Below, one piece after another: positions 37,342 to 39,161 of a stretch of 64,000 nt of DNA (position 1 is the stretch's first letter; the number at the start of each line of letters is the position of its first letter). The notes under the pieces are model-generated. The model saw only the letters and a program-made list of their open reading frames with translations. It was not told the DNA's origin and did not search any database. Position numbers and translations under genes: made by a program. Where the stretch lies: the NCBI GenBank assembly GCA_963808795.1, contig CAWEGL010000001.1:127381-191380 (forward strand). Reading direction: 5' to 3'. The DNA is from an uncultured Acidobacteriota bacterium. GTDB taxonomy: Bacteria > Acidobacteriota > Terriglobia > Terriglobales > Acidobacteriaceae.

Positions 37342-38514
37342 TCAGCCGTCATGTGCGATGGAAGTGGCGCGGGCTCCGAGCATATTAAGCTTGTAGGTTC
37401 GGATCACGGCCGGAGGTATACGCTGTCCGGCGCCCGTGACGAAGGCCAGCGCATCCTCAGGGCATTGCACGATGCAGGCTCCGCACTGCACGCATTCATC
37501 CGGCTTTGCAATCGCCGCTTTGTGGAGAGCGGCATCGATGACATAGCAATTCTTTGGGCAAACCTCGCGGCACATGGCCCGTCCCGTGCAGGCTTCTGCA
37601 TTCAGGTCGATGTGGAGGAGCCGGTCTTCGTGCAATCCGCTTTTGTAAAGGGGAGTGCTCCCAGCCAGGTCCATGCTGATAAGTAGCATGAGAAAGAATG
37701 AAGTCAGCGACCATCCTACAAGACTATGAACGTGCAAGGCGCCGCGGGCATACGCCTGTCCCCACAGCCCTGCCAGGAACAGCATCCAGATCGCCGAGTT
37801 CCGGCGCACCCTGGGATCGAAGAAGATCATCCAGCGCACCCAGGCCGGCGGCGCCGGCCCGGTGGCGTCCGCTGTTCCAGAGAGCCAGGGGAAAAAGGCA
37901 TACAAGCCCAAAGCCAAGACCCACGTAATCGCAACGAACGGCAGCAGCAGGTATCGCCAGCCAATGGCCAGGACCGCACCGCCGATCACAGAAACCGGAA
38001 AAGCCCAGACAGCCGCCATCTCCAGGCGACTAGCAAGCGTGAAGCGAACCTGTCTCATGGCCTCCGTCTTTTTGCCTTGGGCCAGATAAGCTGGAATATC
38101 CGCGGCATATACAGGGCCGAAGACAACGCGCCACCCGGTTCGCTGCTCAACGAGCTTGCGCTCCACGCCCGTCGCGCTCAACTGAGGCAGAATAAGCCGC
38201 CGATGATCCACGAGCTCCGCGATTCCACTGGTGCGCAGAATGGAAATGACCTGGTGCGCAGTGAAGTATCCACCCGCCGCGCCGCACCAGACATTGATGC
38301 CTTTTGTGGGCGCGACGAGCAGAAAGGCGTCCAATCCGCGCAGAGATCGCAGCACACGCCTGACCGTCAGGTCGTAGTTGCACGTGACCAGCACGGGCGC
38401 ATCGCGCCCCGGACGGCCCACCCTGATTAAGCCGGGCTTGGCAGGCCAAGGAAGACTGCGGAGCAGAATTTGCGCCAGATCGAGAAGAAGATCGCGCACC
38501 GCCGCCACGATCAC
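37342..38514 (-). CDS. HgcAB-like fusion: corrinoid domain + TM helices + ferredoxin
   Basis: PVLVTCNY, GINVWCGAAGG cap helix, LILPQLSA, GPVYAADIPAY; TM region; CTGRAMCREVCP and CVQCGACIVQCP. Confidence 0.9.
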   Translation of the reverse strand: MIVAAVRDLLLDLAQILLRSLPWPAKPGLIRVGRPGRDAPVLVTCNYDLTVRRVLRSLRGLDAFLLVAPTKGINVWCGAAGGYFTAHQVISILRTSGIAELVDHRRLILPQLSATGVERKLVEQRTGWRVVFGPVYAADIPAYLAQGKKTEAMRQVRFTLASRLEMAAVWAFPVSVIGGAVLAIGWRYLLLPFVAITWVLALGLYAFFPWLSGTADATGPAPPAWVRWMIFFDPRVRRNSAIWMLFLAGLWGQAYARGALHVHSLVGWSLTSFFLMLLISMDLAGSTPLYKSGLHEDRLLHIDLNAEACTGRAMCREVCPKNCYVIDAALHKAAIAKPDECVQCGACIVQCPEDALAFVTGAGQRIPPAVIRTYKLNMLGARATSIAHDG

Positions 38515-39161
38515 ACCTCGCGTTTCTCGGCTTCCACCAGGGTGAAATCACCCAGCCGGTTGTTTTCCTCCATAATAATGCTGTAGCCGGTCTCGCCCAG
38601 CATTGCTTTCAGGTTGCTCACAGGGCTTGTGCTTGCCTGTGTGAGCACAAAAGTAACGATGGAGAGCGGAACGCGCACGAGGTTGTGAATCATACGCCGC
38701 AGGAACTTCTGCGGTCTCACTTCGTCCGCCAGAATCAGAAGGCCGCCCGGACGCAGCAGGCTGCGGCACTGAAGCAAAACCAACTTCTGTTCGGGTTCAC
38801 TCAATTCGCTGAACATCAGAACGCTGACGATGGTGTCGAACGATCCAGGCGAAAAGTGGTCAGTCAACTCCACCGCGCCGGCTTCCACCCAGCGCACAGC
38901 CAAGCCGGGCGAAACCCTGCGCCTGGCAACAGCGAGCATCTCAGGTGAGAGATCAACGCCGACGACACGTTGACCGGTCCGCGCAAGTCGCATTGCCATA
39001 TACCCGGTACCGCAACCCAGGTCGAGCACGTCGGGACCACGGGTCAGCTCGGTCATTCGATTGTAGATATTGTTGATGTGGCCCAAAGACAGGAGACGGA
39101 TGCCGAAGTCGTAACGCTCCGGAGCCGACTCCAGCACGCGCATCCAGACATAAGAGCTCAC
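38511..39161 (-). CDS. SAM methyltransferase coupled to the corrinoid protein (CpaM-like, name from memory)
   Basis: VLDLGCGTG; ATGA overlap with the HgcAB-like gene. Confidence 0.85.
   Translation of the reverse strand: MSSYVWMRVLESAPERYDFGIRLLSLGHINNIYNRMTELTRGPDVLDLGCGTGYMAMRLARTGQRVVGVDLSPEMLAVARRRVSPGLAVRWVEAGAVELTDHFSPGSFDTIVSVLMFSELSEPEQKLVLLQCRSLLRPGGLLILADEVRPQKFLRRMIHNLVRVPLSIVTFVLTQASTSPVSNLKAMLGETGYSIIMEENNRLGDFTLVEAEKREV

Follow-up and report, generated by a model that had tools for sequence, protein, structure and literature searches.

The window analysed here is a stretch of 64,000 nucleotides from an uncultured Acidobacteriota bacterium (assembly GCA_963808795.1, contig CAWEGL010000001.1, positions 127,381 to 191,380 of the forward strand). 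Two adjacent genes on its minus strand, cpaM and a gene for an HgcAB-like fusion protein, are the subject of this study. The cpaM gene (38511..39161) encodes a class I S-adenosylmethionine (SAM)-dependent methyltransferase of 216 amino acids, as identified from its open reading frame (ORF) and its NCBIfam and Pfam matches. The fusion gene (37342..38514), identified from its ORF and the NCBIfam model NF043039, encodes 390 amino acids comprising a corrinoid domain, four transmembrane (TM) helices, a ferredoxin domain and a C-terminal tail. Both ORFs and their lengths agree with an original prediction that had been made from the letters of the window. That prediction had described an overlap of the two genes by ATGA. 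The 4-nt overlap was confirmed, but it reads GTGA (38511..38514, minus strand), with the TGA stop of cpaM lying over the GTG start of the fusion gene in the minus-strand sequence GAG GTG TGA TCG TGG. One gene caller starts the fusion gene at a GTG two codons downstream, which gives a protein of 388 amino acids (P0001). The cpaM start is also ambiguous, being either the GTG at 39161 (216 amino acids) or the ATG at 39143 (210 amino acids, P0271), and the Met7 encoded by this ATG is invariant across the CpaM family. For comparison, we used a set of 80 genome loci, of which L001-L020 carry fused genes and L021-L080 carry true HgcA, together with four further long contigs from close and mid-distance relatives (L081-L084). 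The 4-nt stop/start overlap recurs in L001, L003, L004, L014, L015 and L017-L019, which span many phyla, and in L006 and L007 the two genes lie in different frames with an overlap of the same length. The reading of the junction indicates that the fusion gene is translationally coupled to cpaM whichever fusion-gene start holds.

Both proteins were compared with curated family models. The fusion protein scored 430.8 bits against NF043039, named "HgcAB-like fusion protein" (cutoff 285), with residues 12-356 covering profile positions 3-349 of 350. As in that family, a single polypeptide combines a corrinoid domain, whose cap helix holds a Cys, with TM helices and with a two-motif ferredoxin in its C-terminal part. 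Against the true HgcA model NF040863 it scored 174.9 bits, under the cutoff of 275, and the HgcB model NF040864 matched residues 301-363 with an E value of 9e-13 and 47.8 bits, under its cutoff of 99. CpaM matched NF043040, "corrinoid protein-associated methyltransferase CpaM", over its full length with 260.4 bits (cutoff 180). It also matched the Pfam families Methyltransf_25/11, with a UbiE-like N-terminus, and its closest solved relatives match the generic SAM-binding core only. Its conserved residues are motif I LDLGCGTG, D70, F108-D109 and D146-E147, of which LDLGCGTG and D70 are SAM-binding motifs. Methylation of the corrinoid is a putative role of CpaM. Homologues of the fusion protein numbered 1573, the closest named ones being from Acidobacteriota, and the family covered 1476 representative clusters (50% identity) at E<=0.001. 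Since both proteins pass the NCBIfam cutoffs and their motifs are kept across hundreds of homologues, these sequence features are not due to chance. Both genes belong to families that NCBI had already curated and named, and the pair is not new. The locus represents the usual form of a gene pair that already has a name but is biochemically uncharacterised, and it is not a new kind of system.

A CpaM of the ArsM type, that is, an arsenite methyltransferase, was also considered and rejected. ArsM models gave 38-52 bits against cutoffs of 263-575. CpaM is not such a metalloid enzyme because it has no conserved Cys outside the GCGTG of motif I, and the As(III)-binding Cys of ArsM thus lack counterparts in it.

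The position of the fusion protein was examined in a neighbor-joining tree of the corrinoid domain (76 sequences, corrinoid iron-sulfur protein (CFeSP) as outgroup, 300 bootstraps). A tree of this kind had been suggested as a check in the original prediction, which called the protein fused HgcAB-like and not true HgcA. The true-HgcA clade was supported by 278/300 replicates, and the window protein lay outside it, beside L001 and L002. This placement and the HgcA model score of 175 bits against a cutoff of 275 both bear out the prediction. The tree did not resolve the fused sequences as a single clade (54/300). Groups in the tree were divided by domain architecture, as a division by K or non-K in the cap fails with the true HgcA of L038, whose cap is NVWCAASEG. 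Previous reports also described fused HgcAB as a separate clade (PMC4646819; preprint 10.1101/2022.11.21.517362). In a Verrucomicrobiota metagenome-assembled genome (MAG), one ORF (L034, 9650-11080) combines a true-type HgcA, with the cap NVWCAAGKG, and an HgcB whose two motifs are canonical and whose Cys-rich tail reads CC...CC. This HgcA-HgcB fusion lies inside the bona fide HgcA clade, and therefore the word "fused" alone cannot define the HgcAB-like family. Three other HgcAB-like proteins (P0195, P0216, P0225) carry an extra N-terminal region of about 150 amino acids that has no Pfam or NCBIfam match.

Domains and conserved residues of the fusion protein

The corrinoid-binding Rossmann-like domain spans residues 22-146 (38077..38451, minus strand) and was assigned from Pfam CdhD, CFeSP matches and an AlphaFold2 (AF2) model. 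The Pfam CdhD match covered residues 22-143 (E 3.9e-15). The closest solved structures by sequence were CFeSP large subunits (2h9a_A, E 5.6e-15), and no HgcA-family chain was found in this search of solved structures. The AF2 model had a mean predicted local distance difference test (pLDDT) score of 68, with the corrinoid domain mostly at 84-95. The top Foldseek match of the model was 9a0b, a deposited coevolution/ab initio model of HgcAB, and CFeSP structures followed with a root-mean-square deviation of 2.1-2.5 A over about 128 columns.

The cap helix, read from the translation, is NVWCGAAGG at residues 74-82 (38269..38295, minus strand), and its Cys77 is the counterpart of the Co-ligating Cys93 of HgcA from ND132. 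Asn74, Trp76, Cys77 and all seven Fe-S Cys were 100% conserved in 95 diverse fused sequences. In a set of 120 close homologues with 56-100% identity, the cap follows NVWC[A/S/G][A/S][A/S/T/C/G]GG, the exact NVWCGAAGG occurs in 23 of the 120, and the sole detectable cap without GG is NVWCSAASG. The cap also ends in GG in every readable fused ORF of L001-L020 (L003 was unreadable). True HgcA loci had NVWCAAGKG in 54/60 cases and K at that position in 59/60. A previous report used N[VI]WC[AS][AGS]GK as the high-stringency criterion for the HgcA cap (PMC10087281), and of the four residues that follow the Cys in NVWCGAAGG, three do not fit it.

The membrane domain consists of four TM helices at residues 160-185, 187-207, 234-256 and 262-280 (37675..38037, minus strand), which the AF2 model gave with a pLDDT of about 88-95. 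A crude hydropathy analysis showed five TM peaks in 49/60 true HgcA proteins and never more than four in the fused proteins, in line with the AF2 model. The even number of helices places the corrinoid and ferredoxin domains on one side of the membrane, as the fusion requires.

The HgcB-like ferredoxin domain covers residues 301-359 (37438..37614, minus strand) and was recognised from the sub-cutoff NF040864 match and from Pfam Fer4 families. Both of its Fe-S motifs were read from the translation. Motif 1 is CTGRAMCREVCP (37555..37590, minus strand), which corresponds to C309-x2-R312-x2-C315-x3-C319-P. Motif 2 is CVQCGACIVQCP (37459..37494, minus strand), a canonical CxxCxxCxxxCP whose four Cys are 100% conserved. 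At the second-Cys position of motif 1, close homologues had Arg in 108/114 cases, Lys in five and Trp in one, and more distant fused members had Cys, Ala, Val, Thr or Ile. Ferredoxins of the clostridial type use the initial three Cys of such a motif as ligands of one cluster, and replacement of the middle Cys is a classical sign of a [3Fe-4S] cluster or a cluster with a non-Cys ligand, as with Asp14 in the P. furiosus ferredoxin. Given the conserved Arg at the second-Cys position of motif 1, the ferredoxin domain of the window's subclade probably combines a [4Fe-4S] cluster with a cluster held by three Cys, likely [3Fe-4S].

The C-terminal tail (37345..37458, minus strand; read from the translation) carries the motif IPPxxIRxYKLNxLG. 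Its 38 residues past motif 2 contain no Cys, so that C351 is the last Cys of the protein and neither a vicinal pair nor an equivalent of HgcB C73 is present. The tail motif was found in 104/112 close homologues, and in none of the 112 did the tail hold more than one Cys. The IPPxxIRxYKLNxLG tail and the missing second Cys of motif 1 together mark a subclade that spans Acidobacteriota, Myxococcota/Deltaproteobacteria and Heimdallarchaeota. The remaining fused subclades keep CxxCxxCxxxCP and have a short or CSCPxC tail. The NVWCGAAGG cap, Arg312 in place of the second Cys, and the lack of the C-terminal vicinal Cys of HgcB had all been described correctly in the original prediction. Its view that non-canonical motifs mark this copy as unusual did not hold, as both motifs are the norm for the family or the subclade.

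It has been reported that C73, C94 and C95 of HgcB are needed for mercury (Hg) methylation (PMC11588087). The window protein lacks the GK of the cap and all three of these Cys. Since every Hg-handling Cys of HgcB is absent, Hg(II) is argued against as the acceptor in this subclade. Previous reports also showed that the two cultured carriers of fused genes examined, P. furiosus and M. methylutens, formed no methylmercury (MeHg), in agreement with what the original prediction had stated (PMC4646819, PMC5893877). We consider it very unlikely that the pair methylates mercury, as a diverged form of HgcAB equipped with a SAM-loading subunit. Such an enzyme would fit the homology to HgcA and HgcB, the conserved Co-ligating Cys and the finding that SAM is the methyl donor of HgcAB (PMC11588087). 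Some fused subclades also have ArsR neighbours, like hgcAB loci, and Cys-rich tails, and the negative cultures may stem from Hg uptake and not from the enzyme (PMC4646819). It is opposed by the HgcA score 100 bits under the cutoff, by the position outside the HgcA clade, by the three mismatches in the cap (PMC10087281), by a C-terminus with none of the required Cys (PMC11588087) and by the two cultured carriers without MeHg.

Linkage to CpaM and the proposed methyl relay

The association of cpaM with the fusion gene was then compared across loci. CpaM was encoded directly upstream on the same strand in 19/20 fused genome loci (the exception was L013) and in 4/4 of the further contigs, that is, in 23/24 fused loci. 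It was also upstream in 3/3 assessable metagenome loci (L085, L087, L088). The metagenome scan with the CpaM alignment used a generic motif I pattern, and most of its 80 loci were unrelated methyltransferases; the informative ones were L085-L088. CpaM was found beside true hgcA in 0/60 loci. The dedicated SAM methyltransferase partner named in the original prediction is well supported by these counts. In addition, six single-chain proteins of 591-644 amino acids, each the representative of a cluster, exceeded the cutoffs of both NCBIfam models (P0148, P0162, P0170, P0173, P0203, P0213). L020 contains a same-frame fusion of CpaM and the corrinoid protein (9251-11026), and L088 (244-1764) encodes a 506-amino-acid CpaM::HgcA-like protein with the cap NVWCATDAG and no ferredoxin domain. 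These results demonstrate that the genetic and physical linkage of CpaM to the corrinoid protein is obligatory, and the Rosetta-stone evidence is strong. A search of the available literature gave no relevant paper on CpaM, and none in which genes of the fused HgcAB-like type are connected with arsenic or with a SAM methyltransferase.

The most economical reading of the natural single-chain CpaM::HgcA(B)-like fusions is a relay from SAM to the corrinoid. We regard it as somewhat probable that cpaM and the fusion gene form a two-gene operon of an uncharacterised sister family of HgcAB, in which a methyl group would pass from SAM to cobalt and on to an acceptor other than Hg, independently of the neighbouring genes. 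In the proposed mechanism, the ferredoxin domain would reduce the bound corrinoid to Co(I). CpaM would then dock on the cytoplasmic corrinoid domain and move the methyl group of SAM to the cobalt, giving CH3-Co(III) with Cys77 as lower ligand. The methyl group would next pass to an acceptor other than Hg(II), at or in the membrane beside the four-TM domain, and the ferredoxin domain would finally reset the cobalt. The pair would act alone, outside the DGC/GcvH/lipoyl and sulfur-relay operons that lie near it. In purified HgcAB, the methyl group of SAM was shown to give a Cys-ligated methyl-Co(III) with electrons from HgcB (PMC11588087). Because the fusion protein has a permanently attached electron-transfer domain and a conserved thiolate ligand, we favour a carbanion or radical methyl transfer, as has been proposed for HgcAB.

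Two other roles were weighed for CpaM and the corrinoid protein. MetH couples the unfavourable reduction of Co(II) to methylation by SAM. On this precedent, CpaM might be a repair module like the MetH reactivation domain, re-methylating the cobalt after accidental formation of Co(II). The routine methyl donor would then be another compound, for example methyltetrahydrofolate (methyl-THF) or a thiol, amine or ether that bears a methyl group, and the corrinoid protein would carry methyl groups in a pathway of demethylation or methyl transfer. The built-in ferredoxin and the likely higher-potential three-Cys cluster would suit reductive methylation, and the corrinoid domain descends from CFeSP, which receives its methyl group from methyl-THF. 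However, no second methyltransferase of the MtrH, AcsE, MtaA or MtbA type is conserved beside the pair in the 24 loci, and SAM is the catalytic donor of true HgcAB (PMC11588087). We judge this role unlikely.

The corrinoid protein might alternatively perform reductive chemistry in place of methyl transfer, for instance the dehalogenation of halomethanes or some other reduction at the membrane that depends on Co(I), with CpaM modifying the product or acting separately. A 2026 preprint reported CCl4 dechlorination by heterologously expressed HgcAB (10.64898/2026.04.26.720869), and an electron-transfer domain that is always attached would be fitting for a reductase. However, that preprint is a single unreviewed report on true HgcAB, and a reductase is hard to reconcile with the strict pairing and physical fusion with a SAM methyltransferase. 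This explanation seems to us rather less likely still than a repair role.

The relay from SAM through the corrinoid to an acceptor other than Hg also has points against it. To our knowledge, no class I SAM methyltransferase is known to methylate a protein-bound corrinoid. For both families, corrinoid binding, the use of SAM and the acceptor are all matters that we infer. True HgcAB uses SAM without a CpaM-like partner (PMC11588087), and two cultured carriers that formed no MeHg do not prove that the enzyme is incapable of forming it (PMC4646819). The AF2 model was poor in two regions, the cap helix and the ferredoxin domain, where the pLDDT was below 50. As for expression, no RNA runs contained the stretch, which was found in soil and sediment DNA metagenomes only. 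The surroundings likewise give no consistent clue to the substrate. The only genes common to all fused loci are cpaM and the fusion gene. The flanks vary: L081 has YwiC and a multihaem cytochrome, L083 has DinB and SMC, and L084 has TetR and a radical-SAM/SPASM gene. The regulators also vary, being ArsR in the clade with the CSCPxC tail, TetR in L006, L007 and L084, and an extracytoplasmic function (ECF) sigma factor in the window.

Neighbouring genes

Upstream of cpaM lies a divergent intergenic region of 230 bp (39162..39391), which was defined from the ORF layout and the sigma-factor domains and separates cpaM from a SigZ-like ECF sigma factor gene (39392-39964, plus strand). The promoter of the pair is presumably inside this region. 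A promoter and terminator scan of 36700-39500 gave nothing above shuffled expectation and no sigma-70-type promoter match, and neither a cobalamin riboswitch nor another Rfam family was detected in the window. The sigma factor gene adjoins cpaM in no related locus, and it is not followed by an obvious anti-sigma gene. A sulfur-handling operon (34059-36808, plus strand) runs convergently to the fusion gene and encodes a type III sulfide:quinone reductase (SQR), DUF1641, DsrC/TusE and a DsrE2-like protein. The SQR matched NF049943 with 629 bits, a model named for a selenoprotein subtype, and the window ORF has no in-frame stop. Before this operon, an ORF of 444 amino acids (32619-33953, plus strand), with a signal-peptide-like N-terminus and no Pfam match, is possibly an outer-membrane beta-barrel. 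A sigma-54 activator gene (30993-32417) is located upstream of this ORF.

On the other side of the sigma factor gene is an operon at 40656-46485 (plus strand). It begins with ArsR, an MTH895/ArsE-type thioredoxin-like protein, a 125-amino-acid protein without a family match and a 2x[4Fe-4S] ferredoxin. It continues with DGC::GcvH, two further DGC proteins, an LplA-like lipoate ligase and a CMD/AhpD-like protein, and then a TolC-like outer-membrane protein. The operon core, from the 125-amino-acid protein to the third DGC, recurs in a Bacteroidales MAG (L045, 1385-3715) with 44-68% identity. The DGC/GcvH/lipoyl operon appears to be a redox module of lipoyl carrier and DGC proteins that stands apart from the cpaM pair.

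In the original prediction, the relay from SAM through the corrinoid to an acceptor, conjectured to be another metal(loid) or a thiol, had been linked to this operon, which would possibly present the substrate. The step from SAM to the corrinoid gained support from the pairing and the fusions, and the presenting role of the operon was lost for want of co-occurrence. We searched for the neighbours by tblastn in 84 loci. DGC, GcvH, LplA, ECF sigma and DsrE/DsrC/SQR were found near 0/23 other fused loci within the fetched flanks, and they were absent beside Acidobacteriota relatives with 67-85% identity and 10-kb flanks. The sole match was L045, a true-hgcA locus, in which the DGC-GcvH module stands independently. 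That the pair methylates a substrate presented by the lipoyl/DGC-GcvH operon (40656-45030) is thus highly improbable. The operon is real, with its three DGC domains, GcvH, LplA-like ligase and CMD protein, and it lies about 1.5 kb from the pair with the ECF sigma gene between them. However, it is on the opposite strand, and the two have separate regulators (ArsR versus ECF sigma).

A different operon was seen in the subclade with the CSCPxC tail (L011, 8077-9445; also L012, L014, L015, L018 and L019). Its first gene encodes an ArsR with an N-terminal CC, and the next genes encode a TM-anchored CGxLTC protein and a small membrane protein with the vicinal-Cys motif GCCGSPMLP. The two small proteins had no Pfam or NCBIfam match, and the Cys pair of GCCGSPMLP is reminiscent of those in mercury transporters. 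This operon hints at a thiophilic metal(loid) substrate for that subclade, which is not the subclade of the window.

Relation to known systems

The window protein shares the domain order, the NVWCxxxGG cap and the upstream CpaM with the HgcAB-like fusion family NF043039, the "fused HgcAB" of Podar 2015 (e.g., P. furiosus Q8U2U9 and M. methylutens). Compared with that family at large, its subclade is rich in Acidobacteriota and has Arg at the second Cys of motif 1 and a Cys-free tail. With HgcA and HgcB (NF040863, NF040864) it has in common a corrinoid domain of about 44% identity, the Co-ligating Cys, a membrane domain, an HgcB-like ferredoxin and SAM as the likely methyl source (PMC11588087). 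HgcA and HgcB differ in being two polypeptides with five TM helices, a GK(G) cap, C73 and a CC pair, and no CpaM, whereas the window protein is one polypeptide with four TM helices and GG. The CFeSP large subunit (AcsC/CdhE; 2h9a, 4djd) is alike in its corrinoid-binding Rossmann-like domain and in an Fe-S cluster that re-reduces the cobalt. In contrast, CFeSP is a soluble heterodimer with Thr at the position of Cys77 and one N-terminal [4Fe-4S] cluster, and its methyl group comes from methyl-THF through a TIM-barrel MeTr, as against the SAM enzyme proposed for the window pair. The MetH reactivation module and class B radical-SAM methylases provide a precedent for the conversion of Co(I) to methyl-Co(III) by SAM with a one-electron donor, but their folds are unrelated to CpaM, which is a UbiE-like class I Rossmann protein.

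The window itself adds little, being a typical member of its family with surroundings that hold no substrate clue. What was gained is at the level of the family: the strict linkage to CpaM, the natural fusions, the difference between four and five TM helices, and the subclade with Arg for Cys. Metagenomic Hg surveys pick up fused HgcAB-like genes, and a published protocol excludes fused sequences from hgcA counts (PMC10087281). Knowing the function of the fused family would reduce the number of "methylators" scored by mistake in such surveys. The strict partnering with CpaM and the fusions, together with the 2024 finding that HgcAB uses SAM, give a concrete and testable scheme for a broad family. 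As a more far-reaching and tentative proposal, which we hold to be possible but not the likelier outcome, the pair may represent a new class of B12-dependent methyltransferase. In this class, a class I SAM enzyme would load a membrane-anchored, Cys-ligated corrinoid, and the methyl group would be passed, in the form of a carbanion or radical, to an acceptor other than mercury, either a soft metal(loid) or a compound soluble in the membrane. The subclade of the window would use for this an unusual [3Fe-4S]/[4Fe-4S] electron module with a conserved Arg. If this is true, widespread Acidobacteriota of soils and sediments, and many other phyla, would carry an unrecognised activity that forms organometal(loid)s or methylates lipids.

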